In this document: positions 8,037 to 49,975 of the stretch, piece after piece | Layout: each line of letters begins with the position of its first letter | Numbering within the stretch: the first letter of the stretch is position 1 | Assembly: GCA_035496715.1 (NCBI GenBank) | Contig: DATJEK010000131.1 | Location: 1-52,169, forward strand | DNA length: 52,169 nt | Direction of reading: 5' to 3' | Source of the DNA: Candidatus Eiseniibacteriota bacterium | GTDB taxonomy: Bacteria > Omnitrophota > Gorgyraeia > 2-02-FULL-51-18 | Made by a program: the position numbers and the translations under genes | The notes under the pieces: generated by a model | The model's database searches: none | What the model saw: only the letters and a program-made list of their open reading frames with translations | Told to the model about the DNA's origin: nothing

Positions 8037-8145
8037 CGCTTCTCCATTAAGGAAAGTGATTATAACACGGTCAACCCCGATGCCCAAAAAGAAACCCCGG
8101 CAGCTTGTGGCCGCCGGGGTTCCTCCCCCACTCGTCCGAAATCGG

Positions 8146-17100: not shown

Positions 17101-17430
17101 CGAGTCGTCGCCGGTGCCGGCTTCGAGGAAGACGAATTTGATTTTTTCCTTCTTGAAAATGATGTCGAGCGCGGCGGCCGTGTTCAGCTGGCAGGAATCG
17201 TTGGTGTGTGCGTCGCGCACGAGATAGACGGTCTTGTCGTTGCGGGTCGGGCGATAGGAATCTTCGATGAGAGCGACCGAATGCGGAAAGCGGAAGGCCG
17301 TGGGAACGGAAGCGGAAAGCGCCAGGTCCGCGGGCGGCTGGATCGTGCCGGCCATCGCGGCCTCGTTCAGGAAAAATGCGTTCACCAGTAGGGCTGCGAC
17401 GACGCGCACGGCTTTGCGGGTTTTTCTCAT
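8146..17430 (-). CDS. giant protein 1 (~3,094 aa from ATG 17430; ORF opens at TTG 17478): signal peptide, conserved N-domain, TM hairpin, YD-repeat-like region, conserved C-domain
   Basis: A single frame carries [27 protein letters not shown], paralogy with giant protein 2 at both termini, multiple YxYDxxGRL-like repeats and 3 GARL[A/S] motifs. AAGGA lies 10 nt upstream of ATG 17430. Confidence 0.85.
8149..9216 (-). other. giant 1 module 4 (aa 2755-3110): conserved C-terminal domain
   Basis: It begins right at GARLA 2755 and is collinear with giant 2 aa 10365-10712. Confidence 0.7.
9920..9967 (-). repeat. short tandem duplication (24-nt period) encoding TEKPQTP/AEKPQTP in a P/K/T-rich linker
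   Basis: On the plus strand, ggcgtctgcggtttctc (from 9920) recurs as ggcgtctgaggtttctc (from 9944), 16 of 17 identical. It sits inside the linker [30 protein letters not shown]. Confidence 0.6.
12079..13020 (-). repeat. about 2.5 tandem protein repeats of ~120-130 aa in giant 1 (aa ~1487-1800)
   Basis: The units share F.(V/F)NR.T..(I/L)T, P(G)(T)AAY(D/N), YFLA and (L/V)IAE(V/L)ES(F/Y)R, for example [35 protein letters not shown] against [36 protein letters not shown]. Confidence 0.55.
15001..15726 (-). other. giant 1 module 2 (aa 585-826): two-TM hairpin module
   Basis: [19 protein letters not shown] (aa ~595-613) and [21 protein letters not shown] (aa ~778-798). It has the same layout as giant 2 module 19 and is bounded by GARLA 585 and GARLS 827. 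Confidence 0.6.
15727..17430 (-). other. giant 1 module 1 (aa ~17-584): signal peptide plus conserved N-domain
   Basis: [34 protein letters not shown] and [12 protein letters not shown] are collinear with giant 2 module 1. The module ends at GARLA aa 585, against 581 in giant 2. Confidence 0.65.
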
Positions 17431-17478
17431 GGCCTGGTGATCCTTTGTCAAAAGCGGTTTTTCGTCAGCTTTTGGCAA

Positions 17479-17686
17479 CCCGGCCCGTCTCGAAAGACCC
17501 CGTCGGCTTTGCGCACACCTTGCGGCGTTTGCCCTTTACAAAAGCAAAACTTTCAATAACCAATTTTAAAAGAGCTTAAGTGATTGAAGTTTACGTGACA
17601 AGCGAACTTCTTTCAAGATCTTTATTAAGTTTTTTGGTTGAAATTATTGTTAAATCTTGGAAAGAAATGATTTCTTTTAAAAAGAA
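17479..17686 (-). promoter_or_regulatory. AT-rich intergenic island between the two giant genes; candidate sigma70-like promoter at 17588-17616
   Basis: There is a sharp drop in GC relative to the flanking sequence. The minus strand reads TTGAAA-N17-TAAACT (-35 at 17611-17616, -10 at 17588-17593), about 160 nt upstream of ATG 17430. Confidence 0.3.
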
Positions 17687-20600
17687 CTACGCAGACATGC
17701 CAACGGCGCGAAGCGCCAGGCGGGCACCCTGGAGCAGGACGCTGACGGGGATTTTTTTGGCCACGGGCAGAAGGAAGCGGAAACGGCTGTACTCGTCGCG
17801 GCGCGCCGCGCCGCTGAAAAGACGCACGAGCGTCGCCGCGTCGGGCAGGCGGTTCTCGGCATTTTCATTGTAGTACGCATAGATCTTGGGATCGACGCCT
17901 TCGAAGCGGATCTTACCGGTCCCCTCGTCGATGCGGTAGAAAGCCGCGGCCGCGCTGCCGAGACGGAACGCCTTGTTCCAGGCCAGCAGCGAATCCCCTT
18001 CCGAAGTCAGACCGCCGACGGGCACGTACACCGTGCGGCCGTTGTCGGCGCCCTCGGGGCGGCCGGCTTCGGCGTCGAAGAGATCCACGAGCGTGCCTTC
18101 GAAGTCCGCCGGGACCGAGGCCGTGAACGCTTTCTCCGAAAGCACCGACGCCTTGAGCTTCTCGAGGAGCTCGGACTGCCAGCCGGTCAATGAAGCGCCT
18201 CCGGTCAGCGCGAAACGCACGGACACGCCTTCCTTGCGGAAGAAATTATGGTGCGCGGCGGCCTGCGCGGCCATGAGGCGGAACTGCGCCTCGAACTTCT
18301 GCGGATCGCCGACGCGCGCGAAATAGTCGAGCGGCACGCGGAAGAGAACGGGAGCGCCCGCCTCCTTCTCGACGGCCGGCAGCGCGATCGAGGCGTTGAG
18401 GTCGCTCGTCTGCAGGAGGCCGTGCACGAACTGAGCGGTGACGGTTTCCGCATCGCCCTCGGAGCGGGCCCGGTCACGCAGGCGGGCATACGCGCCCTGC
18501 GGGTCGGGAATCGATAGGAGCGTTTCCTCGGCGCCGCCGGGGGCGACGTATTTGAGGCGCAGCTCGGCGCCGCCGGTCCCGCGGCCTTCTTCCAGGCGAA
18601 GCACGCGCGCGAAGCGCTCCTCGAGCTCCATCGCGAACGGCAGGCCGCGCTTTTCTTTCTGGGCCGCCCACAGCTCGAGCGCGAAGACGCCCAGCGCCTC
18701 GGTCTGGGCGGGCTCGAGCGCCAGCCGCGCGCCCTCGCCGTCCTTGCGGGACGCCTGTCGCTCGCGGCGCTGCCGCTGGATGCGCGCCTTGACCGGGGAT
18801 TCGACGTACTCCCGGTAGTCGGCGGAACGCTCGATCAGCCCGCGGGCCATGTTGACGGCGCTCAGATCCGTCCGGTCGATCTTCGGGTTCCTGAAAAGAC
18901 GCGCCAGGCGCGGGCCGTCGGTGAGGCGGCTCAGGAATTTGCCGATCGGGATCTTGTTGGGCGACATGCTCGCGTAGACCGGCACCGAATACTTGCGCCG
19001 GAGATAGTCGGTGAAGAGAATGAACTTTTCGCTGCCGGCGATCTCGCCGCAGAACCCGACGTCTTTCGCGGGCCGGTCGCGGTGCGCGGCGTTGTGGCGC
19101 GCGACCGAACCGACGATCGCGTCGATCGCGCGGAGGACCTGGGGATGGAGCTTCGCGAAGAGGTCGCCCAGCTCCGGGAGGTCCCGGCTGATGGCCACCT
19201 TCGCCCCGCCCTTCTGGGCGACGGCCTGCGTGAACACGTCGGAGATGACCTCGGCCGTCAGGTCGTTGGTCCCCACGCTCACGAAACCGGAGAGCGGGTG
19301 CTCGAGCAGTGCGTCCAGGTTCCGGTACGCGTCCACGGTCTCGACCATGATGCCGAAGAGCACGCTCTTGCGGACGGCGAGGAGCTTGTCTCCGCCCGTG
19401 ACCCCGACCGCGGCGTCGATCGCCTCCGGCAGGATCTCTTTTTCGAGATAATCCAGATCTTCCGTTCGGCGGACCATCGGGACCATGATCCGCAGTTCCG
19501 GCCGGCGGTCCGCCGGCAGGGCCGCCTGGGCCGAGTACAGTGCCGCGACCTGCCGGATCAGCAGCTCGCGCCCCAGCGGCGTCCGGTAGAAGTCGAAACC
19601 GGTGACGGGGCTCGTGTCGCCGCTGCGTTCCTGGAGCTTTCTGGCGGCGCCGAGGATGTTCTGGTTCTTGTCTTCCTGCAGGTCCATCAGGCGGAACGTC
19701 ACTTTCTTCCCGGCCAGATAGTCCCTCGAAAGGATCGCGCGGTACTGGTCCATGAGCTCGGCCAGGAATTCGTCCAGACGGCGCTCGCGTTCCGCGGGCT
19801 CGTCCCCGTTCAGCGCGTGGCGGATCAGGGTGTCGATCAGGATTTCCATCTGCGGACCCCAGATCTCCGTCCGCACGAGGCCGATGCCGTCGGCGAAGTT
19901 CTCCTCGAGACCCTCGGCGTGGTCGGCGGTGATGTTCGCGCGCAGCGGGAACGGCGTCGTCCGCGAAGCGAACCGCCGGGCCATCTCGTTCGTCTTCTCC
20001 TGGCGGTATTTCCGGATCTCGAGCTCCTCGACCCGCTCGGCGGAAGGCTCGATGAAGGCCTGGCTCTCGCCCTTGCTCTTCTTCGTGCTCAGGATCACCG
20101 TGTCGCCGACTTTCAGCGTGTCCAGGAGGCGTTTCTGGGCGGGGTCCGTCAGAAGGACCACCGCGGGCGGATTGATGAAGCTCTGCGAGACGATGACCCA
20201 GTGGCTCGAGAGCGTGGCGCTCGTCGTGATGATGCCCTTGATGCGCGTGCCGTAACGGGTCCAGATCCGGTTGATGCTGGTGACGTCCATGTTGTCACGC
20301 ACGACGAGCACCACCGGCTCGTGGTCCGCCCCGAAGCGCAGTTGATGCGTCTCGGCCTCGCGTTCGGCCGAGGACACCTGCGCCGCGATCACCTGGCGGA
20401 AGAGATCGACGACGTCGTTCAGCGTCCCCCGCAGATGCCCGACGGCCTTGCGGCGCAGCGTATAGTAGCGCTTGATCAGCATGTCCTCGTAGATCAGGCT
20501 GGCGAGATTGCGGTTTTCGCGGAGCATGCGGGCGCGCAGTTCGAGGCGCTTCTGCGGCGTCCCGACGTACTGGACGCGGAAACCCTCGAGCAGGCTGATG

Positions 20601-23600
20601 AAATTCTCCGTCACGATCGCGGACGTGGAATATTTTTTGGAGCCCGTCTGGAGGTCCGCGAGGATCCGCAGGTTGTGGCCGAGCTGGCTGCGCAGCTCAC
20701 CGGAGGCGGGATCCTGCTCCCCGACGGCGGCGATCTGCTGGTTCAACACTTCGTTGTAGGCTTCGAGGGCCCCCTGCACCGCCGACGCGCTCTGGTCCAT
20801 GTGCCGGGAGGTCCTCAGGATCTGCTCGAACTCGCGGACGAGCCGCTCGATGATGACGTCGAAGCGGTCCAGCTCGGCGGCCGCCAGCTGCTCGGCCTCG
20901 CGCACTTCGTCCGGCTTCCGGTCGGACGGATTCGCGTAGTCGTACAGCCGGGCGAGGACGAGCGATTCGGCCCTCAGGAAATCCAGGATCTTGTACAGCA
21001 TCGCCTTGTCGAGCGTGCCAACGCCCATCGAGGTGCGCTCGATCTCGTCCATGATCCGGCGCATGAGAAGCGAAGCCGGGTTGGTCTTCAGGTCGGACTC
21101 GCTGATGACCGCCGCCTCGCGGTTGACGAAGGCGAGCGCGAGCTCCTGCTCCCGGTCGCCCAGCGCCGTCCGGATCGACTCGCGGAGATTGTCCATGAGG
21201 AGGCCGAACGCGGCGATTTCGCGCTCTCTCTGCTCCGGCCGCACGGGATAAAGGATCTCCTCGGCGCTGCGCGGGCTGAAAAACGCCACCTGTCCGCTGA
21301 CGGTCTTTTCCGGAGTCGTGCCGTCGCCCTGGACGAGACGCTCTTCGGCGAGGCGGGCCCCCGCGGTCGCGCGGAGTTCCGCCTTGGCGCCGTTGCTCAG
21401 CAAGTCGACCCGGTCGATGAAACGGCTCGTGGCTTCGTGGAGGCGCACGAGCGTCGGGTTGCCTCCCTGGAACCGCGCGTACTCCCGGCCGGAAGAAGCG
21501 AAAACCCAGGCGGCGCGGTTCAGATAGCCGCGGGCGAGATCGAATTCCTCCGCGGAGCGCTCGAGCCGCGAGCGGTCTCCGGAGCGCTTCCAATCCGCAT
21601 AAGCCGAACGGGCGAGCCTCCAGTGAAAAAGTCCCAGACCGCGCTCGGCGAAACCGGCGTCGGCGAGCGTCCGCCCTTTCCTGCGCGCCGGCGCCTCTTC
21701 GAGGGCCTTCGCGTACGCGGCGAGGGCCCTTTCGTAGGCGACGGGAGTCTGGCTGTCCCGGTCGGCGCTGCGGAGATTGCCCTGGCGCAGCAGCGCGTGA
21801 CCCGACAGGATCGCGGCGGCCGACAGGCGGGAACGCAGACGCTCGACGACGGAGGGCCGGACGCGGACGGCCAGACGGAGGGCCTCTTCGTACCGCCTCA
21901 CCGCCCTTTCGGCGAGGATGCGCTGCGATTCGGTCGCGCTCAGCGTCGCTTTCTCTCCGGAAAGCCGGCGGGCGCGCGCGGACAAGCGCTCGGCGCGCTC
22001 GACGGTGGCAAACAGGAGCGCCAGCTCCTTCGACAACCGCGCCCCGCGCCGGTCGGCGGCGCGCATGAACAGGATCCTTTTTTTCTCCTTGATGGCGGCC
22101 GAATATTCCTCGATCCTCTGCTGGAGTTTCGTCCGGATTCCGCGCGCGACGCCGGGCATCCGTCCGATCTCGTCCAGCAGGCCCACTTCGAAGCCCAGGT
22201 ACTCGGGCAGGCTGTTCGAGCGCTCCTCGGCCGCGAACCGGTCGACCCTCGCGCGATATTCCTGGTACAGGCCTTCGGCCGTGAGCCCGGCGGCCGCCGC
22301 CGGGACGCTTTCCTGTTTCTTCTTCAGGAGCAGCCGGACCTCGTTCGCCAAGCCCAGCCGCCGCGCCTCGTCGAGGAGCTCGCCCGACTGGGTCCGGATC
22401 GCCTCCGCGTCCTTCAGGTCCGCGACCCGCGCCAAAAGCGCCCGGCGGCCGGACCAGACGGCTTCGAGCTCCCGGCGGCGTTCGTCGACGACCGTTTGGA
22501 TCCTGGGCTTCACCCCGTGTTCCTCGGCGCTCCGCAAAAGGAGACCGGCGCGAAGATCGAACGTGGTCGCGTCGTCGGCCTTGATCTGCCGGGCCGCGCG
22601 CTCGAGTTTCGTGCCCTCGTCGGTCCGCTGCTCGTACTCGCGGGTCACCTGGCGGCGGCGCTCGTCGACGGCGCGCGCGAGACCGCGGCGGACGTCTTCC
22701 GAAGGAACCGAAGCGAGGAAACCCTCGAGAGCCTTTTCGAACGCCTGAGGAGACTCCGAGTCGAGCCGCTGGATCTCGGGCGAGCGCCTGCGGATCTCGG
22801 CCTCCACGAACCTGCCGCGGCGCTCGGCGACGTAGGGCGCGAGCGCCTCGCGGACGGCGTCCGAGCGGCCGGAGAGCGCGTCGGCCAGGCCCGAATCGAA
22901 GCTTTCGAGAGTCGCCGCGTTCAGCGCGTCGATCCGGAGCTCCAGAAGCGACGCCTCCCGCTCGATCGCCTTCGCGTCGACGACCGGGACTTCCTGCGCC
23001 GGCGGGATCGCGGTGGTGGGCGTCACGGCGGACACGGCGGGAACCGGTTTCACCGTCGTCACGACGGGTTCCGCGGCGGCCGGCTGGGTCACGACCGGTT
23101 GAACGGCGACGGCATCCGCGGCGGAGGGTTTCGTGACGGCCGGCTGAATGACGGCGGGTTTTGTGACGGCGACGGATTCAGCGGCGGAAGGCCGGGCGGC
23201 GGTCACCGGTTTCGCGGCGGACGAAGGCGCGGCGCGTTTCACGGGCGCGGCGGCGGGCGCGAGATAGGCGGCTTCCAGAGCGGCATGCTCCTGCCTCTCC
23301 GCGGTCGTGATCGGCTTCTCGCTGAGATACGACGCGAGCGTGAAACCGTTTCTCTTTTTCCAATTGCTCCACGCCGGAGCCTTGATCGCCAGACGGCGCA
23401 CGAGATAGCTGTCATTCAACGCCGCCCCTTCGGGCGCGGCGGCCAGGATGCGCCGCACGCCGGCGAGGCGGTTGTCGGGGCTGTGGCTGGACACCTGGCG
23501 ATACAGCGGCAGGACCCGCTCCTCATCTTTGTGCTGGTTGAGCCACGACCAGAGCGTGTTGCCGGCCACCGCCTCGATGCCGCGGGCGGTCATGAGCTCG

Positions 23601-26600
23601 GCCAGTTCGTTCACGGTGAATTCGCGGTATGGATTGCCTTCCAGGATCGCGGCCAGACCCGCGTTCACCGAGGTCACGCGAGCGGCGAAGAGGTCGGCCG
23701 ACGTTTTCCTGAACGAGACCCCCTCGGCCTCGAGCGTCGCTCGGCCCAGAAGGTCCCCGAGGTCGTAGATCTGCGTGGAGCTGAGCGTGGAATTGGCGAC
23801 GAGGTTGGCGACCGTCGCCTCGGTCGATTTTTCCTTCAGATCCGCGATCGCACGGCGCAACTCGGCCCAGTTGGCCTTGCTGCGCGGCCCCAGCTCCGCC
23901 AGCCTCGCGCCGTAAACCGCGTCGAGCGACTGCCAGAGGACGGCCGTCCTGTTGCCGAGGAGGGCGGACAAAAACGGTCCGCTCGTGTCGATCGAGAGGA
24001 CGACGGCCGCGTGCGGCAGCCGGTTCACGGTTTCCCCGGTTTCCGCGTCGACGATCTTCACGGTCCAGCTTTCGTCGCTGACGGCGAAATAACGCCCGCC
24101 CTCGAGAAAGCGCACGGTATGCGTCACGCCGGCCCGGACGGGTTCGCGATACGCGAGACGGCCCTGCGGATCCACGGGAAGGCCGTCTTCCAGGTCGAAC
24201 AGCGTCACCCCGGCGGGCGAGGCGGCCGCGAGCCGTCGTCCGTCGGGCGAGAGCGCCACGCTGTCGTGGTTCGGGACCGTCACCGAGCCGGCGAGCCGGC
24301 GCAGGAGGGCGTCGTAAATGTGGATCTTTCCGTCGATCGTCGCGAAATAAACGGTCGTCCCCCCGGGCAGGACGTGCGCGCTGCGGATCGCGGATCCCAG
24401 ATCCAATTCTTCGCGGACGAACGGCAGGTGCGCGCGAATCTCCCAGGGGACGACCCTGCCGTCGGCTCCGGCCGTGAAAACCCTCCCCGCCCGCGGAACG
24501 ACCGCGGCGTCGGTGACGGCCCTCAGGTGACGAAAATATTCCGCGGGACCCGGGCGCTGAGACGGCGTTTCCGCGCCTTCAATTTTCCAGAAGAGGACTT
24601 CCCCTTGGGCGTGCATCGAAATCAGCGTCGAGTCGTCCAGGAACGCGAGTTTCGAAATGCCGGATTGGCCCGGGATCGACGCGATCAGCGCCCCGCTGGC
24701 GGCGTTCCAGATCAGGATCCCGGAGTAATCCCGCGAATTCGCGGTCGCGACCAGGCGCCCGGACGGCGAGAAGACGGCGGCCGATATGGCGCTTCCCTGG
24801 TCGAGCCTGCTCTGCAATTCTCCCGTCTGGGCGTCCCAGATGAGCGCCGTGTTGTCCGCGGAGCCGGTCAGGAACCACCGGCCGTCCGGCGACACCGCCG
24901 TCGTCACGAGACTGTCCTGATGACCCGCCGCGATCACCTTCTGTCCGAAAAACGACCGGAGCTCCCGCGCGGTGCGCGCCTCGTCCAGGCGCCTCATCTG
25001 GGAGACGACCCAGGCGACGTCGCGGGCGTTGACCTGCTCGTCCAAAGCCACGAGCAGCGCGTGGAAGAGGCGGAAGAGGGATTCCCGGTCATGGACGGAT
25101 GACGCGGCCTCCACCCGGGCCTCGATGTCCCGTTTGACGGCGTCTTTTTCCTCCCAGCCGTTGGGGCGGGCGCGATGGATGTCGTAGAGCAGGCCCAGGC
25201 CCAGCGATTCGTAAATCTGCTGGCGCTCGATCTCGAGCGCGGGCTCGTGCGCGGCGACGGCCGGAGCCGGAGACTGGCGGCGGTCCTTCATCGATTCGAC
25301 CACGAGCTTAAGGAACGCGGCCTTGCCCCGCGCGTCTCCCGGATAGAGGGCGTCCGCGGAACGGCGCAGCGCGTACAATTCGTCCTCTCCGTAGGCCGGC
25401 GCCTGGCCCGGCGACGCGGGCCGCCGGTATTCGGGAAAAGCCAGGAGTCCCGCCGCCAGCGGATTGAAGAGCGGGGATCGCTCCGCCTGGTGGACGACGT
25501 TCATCGCGACGCCCGCGATCATCTGGAACTTCTGGAACGAGCGCGGATCGGTGACCCTCGCCGAGAAGATGTTGAACGCGACGGTCCCCTTGGGAGAAAG
25601 ATACCAGGGTGTCCCGTTCTTGCGCATGACCGTGTCCCCGGCCAGCGCCGTGTCGTACATCGTGCTGCGCGAGAGGTTGCCGATCGGCGCCAGGCGCGAC
25701 CAGTAGTCTTCCATGAACTTGAAGATGAAAACCAGGCGCTTGTCGAAGCCCGTGCTCGGCTTCGTGTGGCCGACGTGGATGTGGATGGACGAGCGCAGCT
25801 GCGTGTCGCCGCGCTGACGCGTGCGCTGCCATTCCTCCAGGGCGTGCTGGATGCGCAGGAGGCCCTCGTTCAGCTGGTGGAAGCTCTTCTCGTCGTTGCT
25901 CAGGATGTCCGTGTTGAATTCGATCGACTTGTCCTCGAGGTTGAACGCGGAGCTGTCGATCTTCATGAGCCAGCCCCAGCGCCCCGGCTGCTCGGTGAAC
26001 AGGCCGTCGGGGAACCGGAGATCGTCGAGAAGGGTCGAGCGCAGGAACGTGTAAAACCGCCCGGTCTCGAAATTGTCGTACGCGCCGCTCGGGTCGGTGA
26101 CCGCGATCTCGATCTCGAACCCGAACGTCATGTCCGCGGGAAGCCCCTTCACCCCCGAGAGCGAGTAGAAAAAGTTCGTGTCGATCTTCGAGAGGAGTTC
26201 GAGGTAGGCCGCGTAGGCGCCGCTCGAGAGGGCCGCGAGGCTCGCGGCCGGGCCGTCGACGAGACGTTCCAGGAATTCACGCGGCTGGGCCGACAGGTCG
26301 AGCGAGGCGGCCGCCCGCAGGTAGAGCTCGAGGGTGTGCGGGTTGAGCGCGGACAGCTGCCGGGAGACCGCGACGATGAGCTCGCCGGCCGGCTTGATCC
26401 TCGGCGCGTCGCCGTAGTCGTGGATCGCCTTCACGAGCGCGTTCGTCCGGACCGGCACGTCGAGTGCCCCGGGGATGCGGCGCAGGATGTCGTAGATCTT
26501 GGCGCGGAGCTCCGGCGACAGCGGGCGTTGGAGCGCCAGCGACTTCTGCAGGAGGAAAACCAGCGGCGCGGCGTCGAGCGGTTCGGGCAGGAGCCCGTAA

Positions 26601-29600
26601 AAGAGCTCGAGGTCCGTAAAAATCCTCATCGCGCCGGATTCGTCCCGCTCCATCGAGCGGAAAAAGTCCTGCCAGGCCTCGACGTCCGATTCGCCCAGCC
26701 GGTTCACGCGGCGGACCTTCGCGCCGAGCTCCGCCTCCAGCTGCTGCAGCCCCTCGGAAGTCGGGACCACGAGGCTGTCCTCGGGAGCCCACAGCGAACG
26801 GCCGTCCGGCGAAGGATCGGTGGGCTGGATGCCGAGATCGCGGCGCGCGAGCAGGAACCGCTCCGCCTGGCGGACCACCGGTGAAGTCTCCGAAGCGGCC
26901 GGGTCCGCCTGAATGCGCTTCAACTCGTCGTACAACGTCCGCGCGCGCGAACGCAGCGCGGACGATTGCGCGTCGCGTCCCAGGCGAAGATCGACCATCG
27001 CCAGCTGGGCCAGCAGGCCCTGCACCGCTCCGGCGGGGCGGGTCAGGCGGAAAGAGCCCGGCAGGAGGATTTCGGTGCCGTCTTTCTTTTCCTCCTCGGC
27101 GAGCCTGGCGCCCAGGGCGCCGGGATCGATCCGGTCCAGGATCGGATACTCGAGGCCCGCTCGGACGATGAATTCCTCGACGGGCTCGTAGTCGACGTTG
27201 CTCAGGTGGGTGCCGAAGTAATCGATCTGATCGGGCGAAACGCGCACCTTGTAGATCGACCCGGCGTGTCCGGAGTAGGTGGCCGATTCCCGCGGATCCG
27301 CGGACAGGTAGAGCGGATCCGCCGGCCGCATCGCCTCTCCCGGGAAGAAGCCCTGCCGCCGAGACCCGTGATAGAGGACGAACGATTCGGTGTAGGGATA
27401 ACGGCGCATCAGGTGCCACAGCGAGGCGCGTTCCGCCTTTTCGGCGTGCGACCGCAGGACGGCGGCCAGTTCGCGCCGGTCGCCCCGCCGGAACGCGATG
27501 AGCTCGCGCGCGAAACCCAGAAGCCCTTCCGCGCCCACGGTTTCCGCGAGGCTCGAGAGGGTGAACGCGACTTTCTCCTCCTCCGTCAGGCCGTTTCCTT
27601 CGGTCCAATACCCTTCCACGTTGAAGACCGAATACACACCGGCGGTTTCGGCCGCGGAATAACGCGCCAGAACGGCGGAATAGCCTCCCGCCCGCTCGAA
27701 TCCTTCCAGGATGCCGTCGACCCGCCGGCGGCCCTCTTCGGATTCCGTCACGGCCAGGAGCTTCAGGACGGCTTTCACGGCGGTCGGATCGAGGACGAAC
27801 CGGGTCAGCGCGGTTCCTTCGGGAAGCGTGAGCTTGTCGTCGAATTTGTCGATGAGCTCGTCGGTCAATTCGGCCGCGATCGCCGACCGGAGCTTCCTGA
27901 CGAAGAGGACGATCCTGCGGGGAGTCGCGGTATGCCGCGGGTCGAACTCCTCGTCGAGCGATTTCATCTTCCTCTCCCACTCCAGACGCGCGGGCGCATC
28001 CGACGCGGGAATCAAGCGGCGCTCGACGGCCAGCCGCGCGCCCCGCTCCCCCTCGTCTCCCTCGCCGCGTCCCTGGTGGAGGTCCTTCAGGATGTCTTCC
28101 CTGGAACGCGTGCGCGGCAATTCCTTGCTGCCGCGGATCGACGGGACTTCCGTCCGGCGCACCATGAGCACCAGAAGCGGGATGAGCCCCACCGCGCCGG
28201 TCACGAGCCGTCGGAAAAAGTCGCGCATCATGGAGTCGAACTCGCGCTTCTCGCGCAGCTCCTGGCGGCCTCCGAACACCATCGCCGCGGCGTCCTGGGC
28301 GCCGCGTTCGACCGCCTCCGGCGAATCGGTCCGGAACCGCACGGGCGCGAAGGGCGGAGCGGCCATGTGCTTGTCTTTTTCCACGACCTCGAGCACGGCT
28401 TCGTTCGGGCGGTCGCCGCGGGAGATCCGGATGGCCTCGATCTGGTCGCGGCGCGCGCGGTCGGCCGTCATTCTCGAGAGCGCGTCTCCGAGCTCCCGCT
28501 GAATCGGCTCGGTCTGGGCGATCCCTCGGCCGGTCTCGTCGCGCACCTCGACCGCGAGCTCGGAAAGCGCGACGCGCCGCTCCGGCATGATCCAGCGGGA
28601 CGTGAGCCCGGGCCAGTACAGGAGTGAGGCGAGGAGCAGGCCGTACGCCACCGTGCCGAGCGGCCGGTAATTGGCGAGGAGAAAATCCCGGACGGACCGC
28701 AGAAGGCGCATGATTTTTTTGCCCAGGCGCGCTCCCCGCACATCCCGCACGTCCGGAGGGGCGATGAGATACCGGTCCCATTCCCGGATGAGCCCATCCC
28801 AAACCCGGTAGCGGTTCGTCAGTTCGTCCAGCATCCGCTCGCCTTCCTCGGTCACCGCGCCGCGCCGCGCCATCGCGTCGATCGTCGCGAGCAGGCGCCT
28901 GACGTGCCGGATGTTCCGGCCGGCCGCCGCGTGCGCGACCGCCGCCGGGATCAGGTCGTCGCGGAGATAATAGGTCGCGGTCAGGTCGTCGCGGAACGAC
29001 GCTTCGGCGAGAAACGCGCTGGCTTCCACGAAATAGCGGTAGAGCTGTTCGGGAACGCTCACGACGTCCAGCTGCAGGCTCCGGGGAACCTTGACGGGCT
29101 CCTCGTCTCCGAGGAGCGCCCGTTCCGGATGCTCCTGATGGAACTCGTGATGGTCGTTTTCGTGAATCACCGTGGAGGCCAGTTCGGCGTCGGACTGCGT
29201 GATCGGCGAGGCCAGGCGCGTCATGAACGGGTAATCCCGGTGGGCGCTTCCGGCCGCCCCGTGTTCCAGCTCGGACAGCACGATCAGATGGGTGTTCCGC
29301 AGGAGGCTCTGGTAACGCGAGCGCTCGTCGGTCCCCAGAAGCCGGACGATGTCGAACGCGCGGCCGAGGGCCGTCAGGGCTTCACGATCCACCCGCGGCT
29401 CGAAATTGCCGCCGACTACCGGGATCCGCGTGCCGGGCACGAGCCGGGCCTTCTTGAAAATCTCGACGCCCTGGTCGATCTTGCGGGAGATCCGTTCGAG
29501 CTCCGCGTTGATCGTGGCCGCCGGGAGATTCAGTTGTTTGAGCTGCATCACGCGCATCAGCGACGCCGCCAGCCACGGCCAGCGGTTCTCGACGAACTCG

Positions 29601-38600: not shown

Positions 38601-41600
38601 TCGCGCAGCGCCAGGGCCGACCGCGCAATTTCCCGCCCTTCCTCGGTAGCGGCCAGGCGCGCGCCGAACACGGACCTCGCTTCGTGCTCGCTGAATGCCG
38701 TCCTGCCGTCGACGCTCAAGAGCACCAGGTCCTCGCTGTCTTTCGGGCGGACCGTGATCACGTGGCGCCTCTCGGAGGAGTAGCCGCGCGTGCCTTCGGG
38801 CATTTCCCAAATCTCGGTGAGGTACGGATAGACCTGACGCTCTTCCTGATCCTCGAGGCTCACTTTCAGGGAGGCCAGCCTTACCGGAGGAGGATTCAGG
38901 ATCGAATGGTTCTTGATCGCGCGAAGCGTCGCGGCGTCGGCCGGATCGGACCCGGATTTTTCGACGTAACACCGCTGCGCCGCGATCTCGAGAGCCCCGC
39001 TCCCGTCGGCCACGCGGAACCGGAGATGGCCGGGAGCGGCGTTGATCGGCAGATCGATGAGCGGATAAGGGGTCCCGTCCACCACGGCCACGAGCTGGTC
39101 GGTCGCACCCCCGTCGTGCGGCGCGATCTCGCTGCCCACGATGAGCCTCTTCGAAAACCGCAGCCACGTCGTCGAACGGTCCGCGAGATCGGCGCGCGCG
39201 ATGTAAAATCCTTTCAGGTCCCGCCCGACGACGACGCGGGCATTGGACGGGCCGTCGCCGATCGTGAAGATCAATCGCTGCCAGGGGCCCAGCGCCAGGG
39301 TCGTCTTCCCCTCGAAAGCCGTCGCGGCCAGGCGCGCGCCGCGGTAGGAAACCTCCTCTTCCAGGAAGGCCTTGAACTTCTTGGTGCTGATGCGGTTGGA
39401 CTCGTTCACGGGATACACGAGCTTCGCGTAGGCGGCGGCGTTCTTCTCGGTCAGGACGAAGGGCTCGAATCCCGCCTTCAGGAGGACGTAATTCATGATG
39501 AGGTTGGAGGTGCGCTTGTTGCCGTCGTGGAAGCCCTGCAGGTTCACGAGGCCCGTGAAGACGCGCGCGGCGACCGTGATCGCGTAGTCCGGGTCCGCCT
39601 CGATGCGCTGCGCGACCTCGTCCGAGAAGAGATAGGCGAAGACGGCCTGCATCTCGTCGAACTTGTCGGCGTCGTAGAAACCGGCGCCACTGATCAGGCC
39701 TTTTTTGCTCAGCGCCATGTGGAAATCCCTGAACTCCGTGGCCAGCCAGCGCGGCGCCATCGGCCCGTTCATGACGAGCTTGTTGAACCGCCGGATGGCC
39801 GTCCCGTACTGCCGGATCGCCTGTTCGTTGAACGTCTCCGGGTCGAAATGCTGGTCCGGGTCCTCGATCTTGTCGTTGATCTCGCGGAGTCTGCGGCCCA
39901 TCGTGCGCAGGCGGCGCAGCACCAGCCGCTCGTCCAGGCCCTTCTCGATCTCCCGGTCGTACCAGTGGCTGCCCGTTTCGGCGGCGGGCGAAGCGGCCGC
40001 GATCAGCGCGTCCTCGAGGACCGAGTCGAAATCGGCGAACCGGTTGCCGGTGGAGGGGATGAGGCTCTGGATCCCCTCGAGGACGCGGAGCGCCGCCAGC
40101 TTTTGCCCGTGCTCGGCGAATTCTTTGGCGCCTTCGAGCCTCTCCCGGGCGCGCGTGATGAAAATCTGCTCGGCGGCGCTCATCGGATAGGCGGAGTGGC
40201 GCGCCCTCTCGAGGACGATGTCGAGCCTCGAGAGCGTGTTGGCGAAACTGGCCAGACGCGCGCCGGACGTCGGCTGAGCGCCGTGCGGAGGAAGCGCGGC
40301 GAGCGCCGCCCGCTCGTCCGCGTCGGGGTTCAGCGCGATCGCGTAGGCGCTGAACGGCTCCAGGAATCCGCGCCGGACGAAGCGGTCTCGCAGGTAGACC
40401 GGATAGCCCATCGCCGCGCTGTCGAGAAACGGCGGATACCAGGTGTCTCCGCGCACCGCGTGCACGCCGTCGGCGGCCAGGCCGTCCAGGAGCGCCTTGC
40501 GGACCGGCACCGCGAGCTTTCCGCCGCGGTACGCGGGATGGAGCAGGAAATCCGCGATGATCACGTCGTTTTCCTTGAAACCGACTCGCTCGTATCCGGG
40601 CGTCAGCGGCCTCTCCCCTTCGCTCAGGGCGAACTCATGGCGCTTCACCTCGGTGAACGGCACCGCCAGGACGAAACCGACCGGGACCGAGGGGTTTTTG
40701 TCGTCGGAGAAAACGTAGGCGCGGCCTTTCGGGACGCGGGGGTTGATCTTTTCCAGCAGAAGCGCGTCCTGCGCCTCCCGCTCGACACCGCGGATCTGGC
40801 TCTGGACGTAGCGGGCCTCCCGGGCGGTGACGCGCTCGGGCACGAGCAGGGTGTCGCGCAGCTCGTTGTCGGGCTGGGGCGTGCCGTAACGAGACATCTT
40901 GAACGAGCGGTCGATGAAGAGCGGCTCGAACGCCTTCGTGTCGAAAATCCGCAGGAATTCTTTCATGTCGACTTTTTTGGCGCGGATGCCGCCGCCCAGA
41001 TCGATCTGCTCATAGGCCAGCCGCGCCCCGGAAAATCCGGAGCGGGCCGCTTCGTCCGCGGTCAGGACGGCCGACGCGGGGAGCCCCGCCTTTTCCAGCG
41101 CGCGCCGCACCGTCTCGCCGGCCGCCCCGGAGAGGTCCGACATCGGCGGAGGACCGTCGTTGATGCGGCTCATCGACGCGCGCTCGATCGGCACCTGCAC
41201 GCGGTCGAGCTCCTCTTTCTGGCGCTCCACTTCGACGCGGAACCGCTCGCGCGCCGCCGCCGAAGAAAAGTCGACGGTGTCGAACGCCAGCAGTCCCTCG
41301 AAACCGCGGGTCAGCTCGGGGCGTCCGCTGAGCGCCGCGTACTCGGAAAGCGTCTGCCGGGCGTTGAAAACCACCTGGTCGGCGAAAAACATCGGCTCGT
41401 CCACGCTCGCGTCGGGCACGAGGGCCGGCCTCTGCGAGGGGTAGTTCAGCCCGAAGCTCCGCTGGTTCTCCTCGAGGTCGGCGCCCGACAGGCCGATGAC
41501 GAGCTGGCCCGGAAGGCCGGTCACTTCGGCGCGGTCCCAGACGCCTCGATAAAAAAACATCCTGAAATCGGGCGGAAGAGACCCCTCCTCGAGGAGCTCC

Positions 41601-44600
41601 TTCACCGCCACTTTCACGGTCATCTCGGTGATCGAATGGGCGCCGTGGTCCATGAACCCTTCGCCGTTGACGACGACCATCTTCGGCTTTTCGTCCCGGA
41701 GGATGTTCTTCATCCGCTCCAGGTCGGCGCGCTTGGCCGTGCCCTGACGCTCCTGGGCGTACCAGCTCGAGCTGATCGGGTAATGGATGTCGGCGTGCGC
41801 GACGCCGCGCGCCATGAGCTCGGTCTGCTCCTCGGGAAAGCGCAGGAAGACCTTGATGTCCTGCATGAGCTTCAGGTCCGTCGACCCCCAGCGCGGCTTG
41901 GCGTCCGAATAGGCGCCGAGCGCCTCACGGACGGCGCGCACGGCGGCCTGGTTCGCGAGCCGTCCTTTCAGGCCCGACTGGAAATTCATGCGCAGAAGGA
42001 GGAGCTTCGCCCGCAGCTCTTGTTCGCGCGCGGGCATCAAAGACCAGGTGTCGAAATTCTCGGGGTTCCCGGTGAGCGTCTTCCCCTTCAGGACTTCGAT
42101 GAGCTCGCGAAGGTATTTTTCGTCGGCCGCGCGGAACGAGGCCTCGCTCGCGGCTTCGGCGGCGACCGCCGCCGTGTCGGTGTCCGAAAATTCGGCCGCG
42201 CGCGAGAGCGCCGCGAGCGCGTAGGCGTCGGCCACGGCGGTATATCCCGGAGCCGTATAAAAGGAAGCCAGCCGCTGTCCGGCCTTGCCGGCCGGGGCCG
42301 CCCACTGGCTCACCTGGAACTGGGCCGCCAGCGAAAGGTCGTCGAGATGCGGGCCGATGTGGACGATCGTGTCGCCGGGCGCCAGACCCAGCCGGGCGGT
42401 GACTTCTTCCGGCCGCACCAGGCTCGCTTCGACGGCCGACGCGGTGCGCCCGCGCAGCGACTCCCAGGACTCGGAAGCCGTGAGCGCCGCCAGGTGCGTC
42501 CTGCGGATGGCGAGGATCCGCGCGTCTTCCTTGCCGGCGGATTCCAGAAAATCGGAGACCTCGAGCGCGCGGACGGGCTTCCCCGTCTCCTTCGACAGCG
42601 CGATGAAAAGCCGCGCGCGCATCGCCTCGGTCCATTCCACGTCGTGGAAATCCCACGGGTGCGTCTGGTAGCGCAGCGTGCCCGAAGAGCTGGGCTCGGT
42701 GATGAGGACGCTGCCTTCCCCGCCGGCGCGCAGCGCGGTGACCGGATAATCCGGCGACGCGTCGCCCTCGACGAAGCGGCGGACCGACTCGCGTTTTTCC
42801 TTGCCGTTGATGATCGTGATCACCGTCGGCGACCCGAGAAGGAGCTCGCGGGGCCCCAGCGTCACTCCGCCGATGCGGATTTTCCCGTCGGCCGTCTTGA
42901 AGTGCTGCATGCCGCCGCGGTCCTTGATGTTGCCGGCGGCCGCGTGATAGCTGAGCAGCTGCAGCGTCACGCCCTGGTCGAAGGCGGTGCCCTTTTCGTT
43001 GAACGCGATGTGGCCCTCGCCGGTGTACGAAGGCCCCGCGCTGAAGAGGACCACGTCCGCGCCGCCGCGGTCGGTGACGAGCCGCGACATCGACCGCGCG
43101 TAGGCGTCCAGGGCCTCCAGATACGCGCGCTGCGGATGACCCGCCTCCAGCGTCCCTTTCAGGAAATCGTCCAGCCGGATCCCCTCGCGGTCGATGGATT
43201 CGTTCACGGCGCGGAACGCCGCCGCGTCGAGGCGGTTGGCGTCCGGGCGGTCGATGTCGCCGCTCGAGACGTCGCCGTAGAAAAGCCGGCGCTTGTCGCC
43301 GCGGATGCCGATCTTGTCGAACGCGTGATTCAGCTCGTTGGCGTACGAATAATAGTCGTCCCGCGACTGCGGGAAGATGCTGTCCAGATGCGACGCGAAC
43401 ACGCGTCCCATGTCGGGTTTTTCCGAAAGGTCCACCCCGGCGGACGCCAGGAACGTCCGTGTCGGCTCGTCCCAGTTGCCCCAGGCGTTGAGATAGGAGG
43501 CGAGCGTCGTCAGGCCCAGCCACTGGGTGTTGCCGGTGGCGAAGAGGATGAACACGTCCCGGTCCTTCTGTCCCGCCTCGTCGTATTGCCGGCGTTTTTT
43601 CTGGATGGCGCCCAGGAGCGCCGCGGCCTGGAGCGCGCCCGTGTGCGCGATGTCCTCTCCGATCCGGAGCTTCGTCTTCCCGGCGCGGCCGAACACCTCT
43701 TCGTAGAGCGCGATCCCCTCGGGCCGGCCGTCGGACAGAGCCAGGCGGGCGCCGGGCGGGTTCGCCGTCGAACGCGCGACGATGGTTTTCCACGCGCGGG
43801 CGCCGACGCTCGACTCGGCGAGGCTGCGCTCGAGGCGGGCGACGGTCATCGCCCGGAATTCGTCCTCATGGACGGCCACGAAGAGGCCCGCCATCTGCGC
43901 GGAAGCGAAACTCTGGTGCCAGCCGAATCCGTCGAAGCCGAAACGCCGCAGGAGCGCGTTCACGGGCTGGAGGATGAGGTTGAGCGGCCAGATGTAGCCC
44001 GTCGGCCGTTCGACCGCGCGCGGGAACACGTAGATTTTGAGCGCGTCGCCGTCCCGCTTGACCGCCGCCAGGTCGAAATCGATGCTCATGGATTTGAGAA
44101 CCGCGTTGATCCGGCGAAGCCAGGCCTTCAACGCCTCCGGCCGCCCCTCCAGCACGAAACCCCTGGCCTTCCATCCGCTCAGCTCCCGGACCGAGACCTC
44201 GTCGCTCGTGAAAAGCGGCAGCGACGCCGCCCGCTCGACCGGAAGCGTCCCGTCGGGGAAGATCTTCCTCATCTCGCTCCAGGGATACAGCTGGTTGTGG
44301 TCATGACCCAGAACGGACGCGCCGCCCTTCACGCCTTCGTTGCGGAAGGTGACGTACGCCGAAGCCGAATCCGCAAGATCCACGAACGTGTCGGCCCCGC
44401 CGTCGGTGAGGACCTGCGGCCGGTGAGCGGTCGCGATGTCGAGCTCGGTGCCCCGGACGGTCGGAAAATCGTTGGTCCGGACCGTACGGTCGGCCCAGGA
44501 AACGCGCGTGCGCGCGTCGTCGAACGTGTCGAGGCAGAGCGGGCAGCGGTCCTTCGGATAAAGCCTCGTGTCGGCGGCCTTGCGCGCGGGATTCAGGATG

Positions 44601-47600
44601 GCGGCGAAAGAGTTTTCGAAGCGGCGCGTCCGCGACGCCTCTCCGACCCAGGTCACGTCCGGAACGAGGCCGGCGGCGATGTCCGACTCGGCGACGGCGC
44701 GCAGAACGTCGTTCGACGGCGCCGCAGCCAGCCGCGCCCCGAAAAGAGTCCCCTGCTCCGGCTTGGAGTTCAATTTCACGATCTCTTCGCGGAGCGCGCG
44801 GAAGTCCGCGGTCAGCGCCGTCAGCTTGGTCCTCACCCCGCGCGAACGGTAGGAGCTCATTCCCGACCAACGCATCACGACGGCGATCGCCCGACCGACC
44901 TGGTTGACCGCCTCCACGGTGGCGGCGTCGCCGCGGCGGACCTGGTTTTGGAGCGCCGAAGCGGCGTTACGGATGAGGTAGGATCCGAGCCTGCGGTGCG
45001 CGTTCAGTTTAAGGAGGCGTCCGGCCAGTACTTCCGCCCGCCCGGCGAGCTTCTTTTCTTCGGCGGAGAGTCTGGCGCCCTCCGGGGCGCGGCCGTTCGG
45101 CGCGGACCCAGGTTTCGTGTCGAGGAGAACGCTTGCCGTGGTGAAGGGTCCTTCGGGCCTCGTCTCGGTCCGGAGACTGAAGGTTCCGACCTTGGGACGG
45201 CTCTCGGAGCCGCTTCCCTCGACCAGAAAACGAACCTGTTTGACGCCCACGCCGCGGCCGCCGAAAAACTGGCCGTAATTCTCGTCGCCTTTCGTGCTCA
45301 GCCCCCAGATGGAAAGGAGCGTGTCGGCGGAAAACGCGTCGATCTCCCCGTCCGTGACGCGGGAGTGCCCCTGCGGGATGTAGGCGCCGACCACGAGCTT
45401 GCGGTCCACGTTGCGACGGAAAATGCCGCGGGCCGACACGGCTTCGAGGATCGCGGGCGCTGTCATCGAGTCCGCCCCCGGCACCGCTTCCCGAAGGCCC
45501 TGGATCGCCAGGAGGCGCTCCGGCTCGAACGCCGCGAGCTCCTCCGGCGGGACGGGCAGATAAAATTCCTCCTGGGTCAAAAGCGCCCCGTCCCTGTCGC
45601 GGCGGTAGACGCCCTTCTCCTTGGCTTTCCTCTTCAAGTCCTCGACCGGCACGGAACCGGGATTCGTGACGGAGTAAAGGAGCTTCCCGTCGGGCTGCTG
45701 CCGCAGGAGCACTTCCACGAGCTCCCGCCGGCCCGCCGGCTGCGTCTGCTGGGCGTCGATGGCGTTTTTGATGAATTCACGGACCACCGACTCGAGCTCG
45801 AACTCGGCCAGGCCCGTCAGAAGAAGCGGCTGGGTCATCTCGACCCGGAACTGCACGCGGCGGTCGCGGACGATGTCCCGCACGACCTCGCTCTGGAAAT
45901 AATCGCGGATCACTTTGCCCGCGTCGATCGACCGGCCGTCGGGCTCGCGCGGCGTGCGGTCCGGATACAGCTTCATGTAGTCGCGCGCCAGGATGCGGAT
46001 CGACTGCTTGAGCTCGTCCATGATCGCGTTGGGTTCCTTGCCGGCGGGGTCGATCGGTTCGCCGAACACGACCGTGTAACGGTACGGCGTGGCCCAGCCG
46101 CGACGCCCGAGGAGGCGGCGGAAGTACATCGTGACGAAGTTCCACAGCGTGAACTGGTGCGGGATGTTCGTGTCGATGAAGAACGGCACGATCGGCTTGC
46201 CGCTCTCGGCCGAGATCTCGGCGACGCTCTGCTTGAAATGACCGAGGTTTCGTTCGAGCCCTTTGAACGGATCGCCGCGGTGGATGTGCGGGCGTCCCGC
46301 CGGGAAGACCGCGTACACCGAACCCGGCCTGCTCAGCCGGCGGCGGATCTGCTCTTTCGGCGAGGCCGAAAAGGGCCGGACTCGGAGCGTCCAGGCGGCG
46401 AGGCGCTGGAGCTTGTTGAGCCGGTCCTCGTGCTCGATCACCAGCCGGTAGCTGGCGTCGGGCTGGCGGATCGAGCGCACCAGGCCCGTCAACCGCGCGA
46501 AGAAGAGCCGCCAGCGGCCCATGCGGCCGATCTGCCTGGCGATCACCTCGTCCCGGTAGCCGCTCTTCAGCGCGAACACCCCGGAGAGGCGCGCCATGAA
46601 GCGCTGGAGGAAATTGGAATGATCGAGCTGGGCGATAAAATGCGGCATGCGTCCGTCTCGGAGGATCGCTTCGGACGTGAGGATCAGGCCGTCGGTGCCG
46701 TGCGCGTTCAGATGGTTGCCGGCCAGGAGAAAAGACTGTCTCTCGGCCTGCGGCAGATTTTCCAGGCCCTCGACCTCCACCTTCACCTGGCGGCCGATCA
46801 CCTGTTCATAGACCGCCCCCCAGAGGGCGGGACCGAAAAAGTTCCTGTAGAAAAGCTTCGTCCGCCGCCGGGCGGCCTCCTCGCTGACGGGGGCCTGCTT
46901 CGCGAGACGGGCGCCCTGCAGTTCCGTCTGCCGGTGCGCGAGCCAGTCTTCGACCGCGCGCTGCGCCTGATCGACCGAAACGTGCAGCAGGCGTCCGCCG
47001 ATCTGCAGGATCTCCGTCTCCCCGGTCTGGGTCGGGTTCACGGCGATCGCGAACCGGCCCTGAGCCGAAACCGAAGACGGCACCGCGTAGACTTCCCAGA
47101 TCTGAGCCAGATACGGCGTCCCGCTTCCGTATTCGTCGACGAGGTTGAGATTGATCGTCCGCGCGGCGCGGCGCGCGTTGCCGTGCCGGATCTGGCGCAG
47201 GATCGCGTCGTCGGCCGGCTCGCCGGTGATTTTCTCGATCGTCGCCCGCCGGCCGGAAACGAGGAGCCGCCCGTCCGGCTGAACCGAAAGATCCAAGTGC
47301 CGCGCGCGCACGTCGATCGGAAGATCCATGAGCGGATACTCCCTCGAACCGTCGAGGATCGCGCTCAGCACGTAGCCCGACTCGAGGTCCACGCCGCCGA
47401 GAGTCAGCGAACGCTCGAAGCGCAGCCGTCCCGAGGGGGTGCCGATCAAATCGGCCTTCGCCACCGAGAAGCCTTTCGCGTCGCGCCACACGGCGACGCG
47501 GGCGTTCGAACCCGACGTCCCGAGCGTGAGGACCAGCGTCTCTCCGGGGGCGAGCGAGACGGCCGCCTGCCCGTCCAGCGCGATCTGCCCCGAAGGGAGC

Positions 47601-49825: not shown

Positions 49826-49975
49826 GAAATAGAGAGGTGTCTATTTTTTTTAAACTCAACCGGTTGGCGGTATGTGCTTTGTCGATCGGCAATTACGTAC
49901 GTTTTGGAGAAGTATGCCTGATCCCATTCTCAAATACAAATCGGAATCGAGGCGGCCCCGAGAGGGAGAATAAGC
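49826..49975 (-). promoter_or_regulatory. AT-rich intergenic island upstream of giant gene 2 (promoter/5' leader region)
   Basis: 150 nt of AT-rich sequence lie between the panE stop (49976) and the longest-ORF start. The AT-richness continues into the first ~50 nt of the ORF, so the true start may lie further downstream. Confidence 0.3.

Follow-up and report, generated by a model that had tools for sequence, protein, structure and literature searches.

A recurring GARL[A/S/G] pentapeptide marks module junctions in giant Omnitrophota proteins and is a probable processing site

Whether the giant proteins of bacteria work as single chains or as cut pieces is an explicitly open question, and the locus described here raises it in a form that can be tested. 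The window, that is, the whole stretch of DNA that was analyzed (52,169 nucleotides, 67% G+C; contig DATJEK010000131.1 of the Omnitrophota assembly GCA_035496715.1), carries two co-directional giant open reading frames (ORFs) on the minus strand, g2 (17687-49825, 10,712 aa, GTG start) and, in tandem downstream of it, g1 (8146-17478, 3,110 aa), a member of the same family. A first-pass annotation made from the sequence had pointed to a pentapeptide, GARL followed by A, S, or G, which recurs between the domains of both proteins, and had read it as a processing or docking junction of a polyprotein-like multi-effector. We found that the motif is a junction signal selected at the peptide level, which lies at the boundaries of shuffled homologous modules, in proline-rich linkers, and is specific to this protein family. 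It is probably also an endoproteolytic processing site. For the favored explanation as a whole, comprising junction signal, processing, and polyprotein, we estimate a probability of about 0.55.

Translation of g2 gave 25 copies of GARL, followed by Ala (18 copies), Ser (six), or Gly (one) and, in all 25 copies checked, by no other residue. Read from the N-terminus, and with the sequence GARLA where not marked otherwise, they start at aa 581 (48071-48085), 971 (46901-46915), 1583 (GARLS, 45065-45079), 1696 (44726-44740), 2025 (43739-43753), 2933 (41015-41029), 3188 (40250-40264), 3496 (39326-39340), 3721 (38651-38665), 3885 (38159-38173), 4289 (GARLS, 36947-36961), 4648 (35870-35884), 4759 (GARLS, 35537-35551), 5141 (GARLS, 34391-34405), 5599 (GARLS, 33017-33031), 6008 (31790-31804), 6703 (29705-29719), 7031 (GARLG, 28721-28735), 7262 (28028-28042), 7572 (27098-27112), 8639 (23897-23911), 9261 (GARLS, 22031-22045), 9489 (21347-21361), 10365 (18719-18733), and 10700 (17714-17728), all on the minus strand. 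The three GARL[A/S] copies of g1, on the same strand, are GARLA at aa 585 (15712-15726), after its N-domain, GARLS at aa 827 (14986-15000), and GARLA at aa 2755 (9202-9216), directly before its C-domain. All 28 positions reproduced exactly those given in the first-pass annotation.

The composition of g2 predicts 1.02 copies of GARL and 0.26 copies of GARL[ASG], and that of g1 predicts 0.06 against the three observed. A comparison with shuffled sequences had been suggested, and 2,000 shuffles of g2 contained a mean of 0.25 and a maximum of three copies of GARL[ASG], compared with 25 in the real protein. GARL was by far the most over-represented 4-mer of g2. Since one-mismatch variants occurred only eight times, the motif is sharp and not the peak of a fuzzy pattern. 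The codon choice at the g2 motifs was that of the gene in general, and conservation thus acts at the peptide level. There were no start or stop codons at the motif junctions in the translations of g1 and g2, and the ordinary genes of the window did not contain the motif.

The two giants are similar to each other only at their ends, in an N-domain of about 540 aa (43% identity) and a C-domain of about 345 aa (35% identity). In g2, the part between these ends is made up of 24 inter-motif modules. The same frame defines a family, with an N-terminal hydrophobic helix, the conserved N-domain, variable modules, and the C-domain where it is detectable. A profile search with the N-domain in 1.84 billion representatives clustered at 50% identity returned 9,910 proteins at E ≤ 0.001. 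The matches were Omnitrophota proteins, and in nearly all of the best 150 the domain stood at the N-terminus of chains of 1 to 7 thousand amino acids (kaa). On GTDB contigs, taking one genome per species, 545 family loci were confirmed, often many per metagenome-assembled genome (MAG) and sometimes in tandem, as at loci L003, L009, L036, L040, and L059. One locus (L079, CAYQPS010000086.1) was found in a MAG labeled Saccharibacteria, and many others in MAGs titled "uncultured Planctomycetia"; these labels are probably an effect of binning or automatic taxonomy and not a true spread outside Omnitrophota.

The motif is conserved throughout these homologues, where the first-pass annotation had proposed to look for it. 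GARLA directly followed the N-domain in three partial homologues, and in other genomes GARL occurred 221 times compared with 7.5 expected, with A, S, or G as the next residue in 203 cases (85 ORFs, 79 loci, 179 kaa). When xxR[LM]x was tabulated without bias over 113 family proteins (371 kaa), the counts were 305 GARLA (1.6 expected) and 68 GARMA (0.28 expected), as well as AARLA (89), GARLS (66), GSRLA (32), AARLS (21), and GARLT (19). The family-wide signal is [GA][ASGT]R[LM][ASTGV], and GARL[A/S/G] is its local form. The dominant variant correlated with the genome and not with the individual protein, and the JBLINS genome had a degenerate xxRMA form. At the motif, all Gly, Ala, Arg, and Leu codons were used in genomes ranging from below 45% to above 55% G+C. 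Consequently, it is the peptide on which selection acts, and the original claim that this is no DNA repeat holds for g2 and for the family. As a proteome-type control, which had likewise been proposed, we counted the core motif in the complete non-family genes neighboring the same loci. It occurred there once in 100.6 kaa compared with 1.33 times per kaa in the family ORFs, an enrichment of about 130-fold. The only other motif-rich ORFs near the loci were contig-edge fragments of upstream family genes, and the N-domain was present on all motif-bearing proteins examined that began inside a contig, the N-termini of edge-cut ORFs being out of view.

The motif sites coincide with the points at which homology between family proteins breaks off. 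In an all-against-all BLAST comparison, internal high-scoring segment pairs (HSPs) crossed a motif site 32 times, compared with 129 times expected for random sites, and 27% of the HSP ends fell within 20 aa of a motif site compared with 11% for random positions. Entire g2 modules could be aligned end to end with those of relatives: aa 2029-2936, opened by the fifth site, with modules of P0022 and P0027, aa 3889-4292, opened by the tenth, with a module of P0081, and aa 9493-10368, opened by the 23rd, with a module of P0125. At the median, the inter-motif segments of the family were 252 aa long (interquartile range 130-455). The first site was found at a median position of aa 588, just past the N-domain, and a site directly before the C-domain was usual. 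Counting the Leu or Met as P1 and the small residue after it as P1′, the family flanks showed S/A/T at P5, Pro at P6, a proline-rich stretch from P7 to P13, a depletion of hydrophobic and aromatic residues from P13 to P8′, and an exclusion of Pro, Arg, and aromatics at P2′. The earlier description of the flanks as unconserved is therefore right within g2, whereas weak preferences at P5, P6, and P2′ exist family-wide. The first g2 site, at the end of the N-domain linker, had a predicted local distance difference test (pLDDT) value below 50 over residues 573-584 in the AlphaFold2 (AF2) model, as expected of the linker position that had been suggested. The last site does not follow this rule. At 24 of the 25 g2 sites the motif stands between domains, but the copy at aa 10700 lies within the terminal helix of the C-domain, so that "always between domains" was too strong.

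The segments between the motifs contain what appear to be complete proteins. Scanned against Pfam at E ≤ 0.01, the 30 inter-motif segments of g1 and g2 yielded an acyltransferase, a Fic domain, a D-2-hydroxyacid dehydrogenase, a protein kinase, a WD40 propeller, and a phosphoenolpyruvate (PEP)-utilizing enzyme, each well inside one segment. The dehydrogenase module, which begins at the tenth g2 site, corresponds to approximately a whole stand-alone enzyme (chain residues ~40-356 of 357 matched), and the PEP-utilizing module begins at the 23rd. In the relatives P0019 and P0026, the PEPCK, adenylate kinase, fructose-bisphosphate aldolase/phosphatase, PGK, and propeller domains were likewise each confined to one segment, and the central-carbon modules that Pfam confirmed among relatives were PGK, PEPCK, FBPase_3, and adenylate kinase. 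A CsrA domain formed a 94-aa module of its own between GARLA sites (P0019 aa 4001-4094). In g2 and these relatives, one ORF thus holds several complete proteins in the sense of a polyprotein, with enzyme-sized modules that each occupy one segment. The label "multi-effector" did not survive this inventory, since the modules in the window and in relatives are largely of a housekeeping type (PGK, PEPCK, FBPase, adenylate kinase, CsrA, 2-hydroxyacid dehydrogenase, PEP-utilizing enzyme).

Inspection by eye added aldolase, transaldolase, phosphoglucomutase, and glucosamine-6-phosphate deaminase-like modules in P0022, P0027, P0019, P0026, and P0041, and the abundance of central-carbon modules raises the question whether these genomes hold stand-alone copies of the same enzymes. 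By eye, the CsrA module of P0019 seems to contain the CsrA fold twice in tandem, as if duplicated, and might function as a pseudo-dimer within a single chain. The 1,928-aa central module of g1 contains RHS/YD-like repeats at aa ~1286-1960 (11599-13623), with DAQG[RN] five times, which Pfam did not call at E ≤ 0.01.

The case for cleavage draws on signal peptides of the twin-arginine translocation (Tat) system, which are recognized only at N-termini. Under a strict definition, requiring an n-region of the [ST]-R-R-x-F-L-K type and an uncharged h-region, 454 kaa of family sequence contained 14 internal Tat signal peptides, for example AMSRRDLLKGTVGVAASAV and VSDRRQFLKTAASGTIAAGVAV. Twelve of the 14 began within 40 aa downstream of a motif, nine of them within 10 aa (P ~ 4e-11), although the 40-aa post-motif windows make up only 9.5% of the sequence; the two exceptions followed SARLA and KPRM. 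With the presumed bond written as a slash, examples are AARL/AMSRRDLLKGTVGVAASAV, GARL/AMSRRDVLKVGGAAIVAAG, AARL/AVSDRRQFLKTAASGTIAAGVAVSG, AARL/AMSRRDLLKG, and GARL/AMSRRDVLKV. In the uncut chain, these signals are internal, and they become N-terminal only after a cut at the motif 1 to 27 aa upstream. They would consequently make sense only if the chain were cut at the motif in the cytoplasm. The second module of g1 likewise opens with a signal-like stretch right after the first motif (aa 589-620, 15619-15714). No lipoprotein signals were found after the motif in family proteins, and the enrichment of general hydrophobic h-regions after it was marginal.

The bond itself may be narrowed down by its presumed products. 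Ala, Ser, Gly, Thr, and Val are stabilizing residues of mature bacterial N-termini under the N-end rule, and an N-terminal Leu is an N-degron. Since the residues at P1′ belong to this stabilizing set, while a cut after the Arg would expose a Leu degron, and since a cut after Leu or Met leaves natural-looking Tat n-regions, the cut most likely falls between the Leu or Met and the small residue. The post-motif Tat signals, together with the complete enzymes between motifs, lend indirect but strong support to endoproteolytic processing at the motif, which we consider somewhat more probable than not. The "processing (or docking) junctions" of the first-pass annotation thus stand as junctions and gain support as processing sites, with the 25th site, outside any linker, as the part that does not fit.

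According to the explanation we favor, cleavage at the motif would divide the giant chain, as a bacterial polyprotein, into separate proteins. The products would be cytoplasmic metabolic enzymes and regulators, and some of them would then be exported via the Tat pathway by means of the signal peptide exposed by the cut. The N-domain would act as the protease, akin to the leader protease of a viral polyprotein. This assignment of the N-domain is a tentative candidate and, taken by itself, we consider it rather doubtful.

The N-domain of g2 (aa ~60-530, 48236-49648; in g1 aa ~60-530, 15889-17301) was modeled with a pLDDT of 78 as an alpha/beta core with a helical insert of about 280 aa, and is a candidate TIKI/Ere-like hydrolase. 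The residues D88, H90, E118, E171, R457, and H485 were invariant in 201 of 203 family N-domains. As defined with the crystal structure of the MARTX effector RRSP, an endopeptidase that acts on Ras/Rap1, the TIKI-family endopeptidases share a set of two His and two Glu with a basic residue, which in RRSP are E3900, H3902, E3930, R4001, and H4030, and the Bcr135 equivalents include H85 and E113 (PMC6254334). The g2 residues correspond to this set, with an Asp in place of the first Glu. The putative catalytic DxH (D88-A-H90, 49556-49564) is the counterpart of E3900-x-H3902 (PMC6254334), the putative catalytic Glu is E118 (49472-49474), the conserved basic residue R457 (48455-48457) is analogous to R4001, and H485 (48371-48373), the second putative catalytic His, which lies in a GGFH motif, is analogous to H4030. 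The spacing from His to Glu is 28 residues in the N-domain, in RRSP, and in Bcr135, and that from Arg to His is 28 in the N-domain and 29 in RRSP. In the AF2 model, a beta strand precedes each signature residue. Foldseek placed Bcr135 (3b55, 2rad) and EreC (6xcs, 6xcq) among the top matches, at E 0.3-2 and a template modeling (TM) score ≤ 0.23, which is below significance; the low scores can be attributed to the large helical insert. Of nine cores with the insert deleted, three were matched by the Pfam family Cofac_haem_bdg (ChaN; E 0.0012-0.12), and g1 was matched with E 0.0035, all below the gathering score. Neither PDB profile searches with the full and the insert-deleted N-domain nor a search of a viral structure library returned a significant match.

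Several observations weigh against this explanation. The fold assignment of the N-domain is below significance in every single search (Foldseek E > 0.05, TM ≤ 0.23; Pfam; PDB). Its location is a further difficulty. The first 44 residues of g2 (49694-49825) comprise a basic n-region, a hydrophobic helix (aa 11-43 in the AF2 model), and AFA/DP, and have the look of a Sec signal peptide or signal anchor; such a hydrophobic segment was present in 174 of 199 family members, most of which had no further membrane segment. Therefore, the N-domain may be extracytoplasmic, and this would clash with the cytoplasmic processing implied by the Tat signals and the metabolic enzymes. Among the 150 N-domain proteins that matched best, about 20 have the catalytic signature but lack the motif. 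The cut may fall after the Arg or after the P3 residue instead, and that the chain is cut at all is inferred throughout. Finally, the 25th g2 site lies inside the last C-domain helix at a pLDDT of about 88, without a linker, and many relatives retain xAR[LM]A there, with about 12 aa left to a conserved C-terminus of the form ...[AS]A. Such a conserved helical copy suits a role in binding no less than one in cleavage. The proteins without the motif form a divergent clade (a subset of P0109-P0155, P0011, and P0012; loci L036 and L064), which retains the DxH/E/R/H residues and shares an extension after the N-domain, MLQVASMLN...VWG; we looked for a substitute repeated motif in this clade and found none.

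The C-domain in which the 25th site lies (g2 aa 10369-10712, 17690-18721; g1 aa 2759-3110, 8149-9204) is directly preceded by the 24th site. It was modeled with a pLDDT of 85.5 as a PUR/Whirly-like beta-beta-beta-beta-alpha subdomain and a Rossmann-like subdomain, and ends with ...LRAVGMSA. A hidden Markov model detected it in 26 of 133 large family proteins, always exactly at the C-terminus. We rejected it as a candidate protease because the good AF2 model has no protease fold and a comparison with the PDB gave no significant match. The 25th site starts 13 aa from the C-terminus of g2, and relatives with a motif-like copy in the last helix include P0028, P0029, P0035, P0045, and P0058 (g2 counterpart 17690-17728). 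Among about 130 large family proteins, including truncated ones, 46 ended in ...AA, 35 in ...SA, and 16 in ...SL. The site could be a final cut that frees a 9-aa tail, a pseudo-substrate, or part of a degron- or ssrA-like tail.

Some of the same observations would be accommodated if the motif were cut in trans by an unlinked cellular protease, with the N-domain being, for instance, an exported or anchored hydrolase of the TIKI/ChaN type or a binding protein. A Sec-like signal predicts such a location, the TIKI assignment is weak, the motif variant follows the genome rather than the protein, and a clade with an intact N-domain signature does without motifs. We consider this reading to be on the unlikely side, since the active-site-like residues of the N-domain are invariant, the N-domain is found on every motif-bearing protein examined with an N-terminus in view, and a motif always directly follows it. 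Moreover, no endoprotease gene lies beside the giants within the window, where the neighbors encode IlvD, PanE, SulP, thioredoxin, a YfiH-like protein, and a VanX-like dipeptidase. Somewhat less probable still is an uncut chain, in which the motif would be a docking site for a common partner, such as the N- or C-domain, a chaperone, an unfoldase, or a secretion machine, and the whole would form a membrane-tethered multi-enzyme scaffold. Intact multi-enzyme fusions are well known, including fatty acid synthases, polyketide synthases, and the AROM complex; the support for cleavage is indirect, and the conserved copy in the predicted C-domain helix would suit docking. However, Tat signal peptides right after the motif cannot work internally, the P4-P1′ pattern with a small P1′ and no proline at P2′ is typical of protease subsites, and a small regulator such as CsrA takes up a module of 94 aa.

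Two further readings can be largely set aside. The first-pass annotation had pointed to a likeness to the autoprocessing of MARTX and large clostridial toxins, in which an internal C80 protease cuts after Leu and effectors are released into a host cell, and a Leu at P1 with a small P1′ between modules, as well as the Fic and kinase modules, would agree with it. Yet no C80, C39, S8, or other recognized protease domain was found by Pfam in any of the 30 segments, and neither was an RTX, HemolysinCabind, or toxin-translocation domain at E ≤ 0.01. With these defining domains absent, membership in the MARTX/TcdA group is not borne out, and toxin-type autoprocessing is largely refuted and very improbable; in addition, most modules are housekeeping enzymes, the sites of C80 proteases are much less specific than this motif, and the Tat signals imply processing in the producing cell. 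Even less credit can be given to a recurrence at the level of DNA or chance, as a DNA repeat, a recombination scar, a signal for translational recoding or stalling, or a consequence of composition. The genome is GC-rich, its proteins are rich in Ala, Arg, Leu, and Gly, and modules have clearly been shuffled between paralogues. Nevertheless, the low counts in shuffles and the near absence of the motif from neighboring genes of the same genomes reject chance and composition, the use of all synonymous codons in genomes of very different G+C content rejects a repeat or scar, and start and stop codons are missing at the junctions. We conclude that the signal, highly non-random and found family-wide, is very probably functional and most likely a site at which bacterial polyproteins are processed.

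The Pfam domains of g2 fall in the minus-strand frame, and its N-terminus is kept in relatives. The database version of g1 begins at the ATG at 17428-17430, and from its residue M17 onward g1 has the same sequence as P0014. The two genes are separated by 208 nt (17479-17686), and the G+C content near both 5′ ends (17479-17686 and 49826-49975) falls to 0.62-0.63. Very long antisense ORFs, the largest of 3,986 aa, face the giants on the plus strand at 19082-25102, 30551-37366, and 37829-49789, and also at 8056-14703. These are without domain support and an expected by-product of 67% G+C, and their annotation as genes is unwarranted.

Among known systems, the viral polyproteins processed by picornavirus 3C, potyvirus NIa, or alphavirus nsP2 offer a close parallel in form, with a long ORF of many complete proteins, a strict junction motif of four to six residues, unconserved flanks, a small P1′, and a conserved enzyme domain at a fixed position in all members. 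By contrast, the giants are cellular and come from Omnitrophota MAGs, many paralogous chains occur per genome, and the cargo consists of metabolic enzymes and regulators; the candidate protease is TIKI-like instead of chymotrypsin- or papain-like, and cleavage is presumed. Among bacteria, the gingipain and HagA polyproteins of Porphyromonas are multi-domain precursors from which separate domains are released by cleavage at defined basic residues, but they are cysteine proteases that are exported, carry adhesin domains, and have a handful of sites and an unrelated fold and motif. To MARTX and TcdA/TcdB, the giants bear a superficial likeness, judging from sequence, as multi-module bacterial chains in which a Leu (or Met) precedes a small residue at the junctions. 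They differ in lacking C80, RTX repeats, and a translocation region, in having unrelated N- and C-domains at their ends, in a much longer and stricter motif, in mainly non-toxin modules, and in processing that probably occurs in the cytoplasm of the producer.

The N-domain resembles the TIKI/TraB/PrgY/ChaN/erythromycin-esterase superfamily in its [D/E]xH, Glu, Arg, and His residues with the spacing of RRSP and Bcr135, and in weak matches to ChaN, Bcr135, and EreC. It differs in the Asp that replaces the first Glu, in the ~280-aa helical insert, in the lack of a significant database match, and in its presumed substrates, the linkers of its own chain. In this superfamily, the cut of Tiki1 in Wnt3a reportedly lies between a Leu and an Ala. 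Tiki1 trims eight residues off the N-terminus of Wnt3a (PMC8191133).

Giant genes have been described from the same phylum, namely the Archaeovorins and dockerin-type giants (West-Roberts 2023) and the "multi-enzyme metabolic clusters" of a 2026 preprint, as ORFs of 10-100 kaa tiled with unrelated enzymes. The 2023 giant-gene preprint proposed cleavage on the basis of C39 and S8 peptidase domains and stated that the cleavage points were unknown, which blocked structure prediction. The 2026 complete-genome preprint presents its "multi-enzyme metabolic cluster" giants without mention of cleavage or motifs, and a 2023 paper in Nature Microbiology is likewise silent on cleavage. Unlike the present analysis, West-Roberts 2023 and the 2026 preprint report no junction motif, N-/C-domain frame, or Tat argument; the words "GARL" and "polyprotein" do not occur in the texts of the 2023 giant-gene and 2026 preprints, and a literature search for the motif or for polyproteins together with Omnitrophota found nothing relevant. 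The junction motif, the frame of N- and C-domain, and the argument from Tat signals appear to be new.

The motif tells annotators and structure predictors where thousands of giant ORFs split into modules, and it makes the question of single chain or cut pieces testable. It predicts exact neo-N-termini, which can be searched for in existing metaproteomes and are non-tryptic because trypsin cuts one residue earlier; in bacterial giant genes, they would be the first points of cleavage to be named precisely. It also nominates a specific protease domain with its catalytic residues for mutagenesis, and could yield a new, highly specific pair of protease and site. Cleavage at the motif, if confirmed, would mean that polyproteins are used beyond viruses and a few toxins. 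The broadest form of the proposal is that the Omnitrophota giants of this class, some 10^4 sequence clusters, are cellular polyproteins with a TIKI-fold leader protease, cut at [GA]AR[LM]/[AS]. We put it forward as a speculative and, at present, unlikely generalization. If it were true, each chain would hold dozens of enzymes, among them those of central metabolism, as well as regulators such as CsrA and Tat-exported proteins, and a bacterium would be using a virus-like strategy of gene expression for its own housekeeping proteome.

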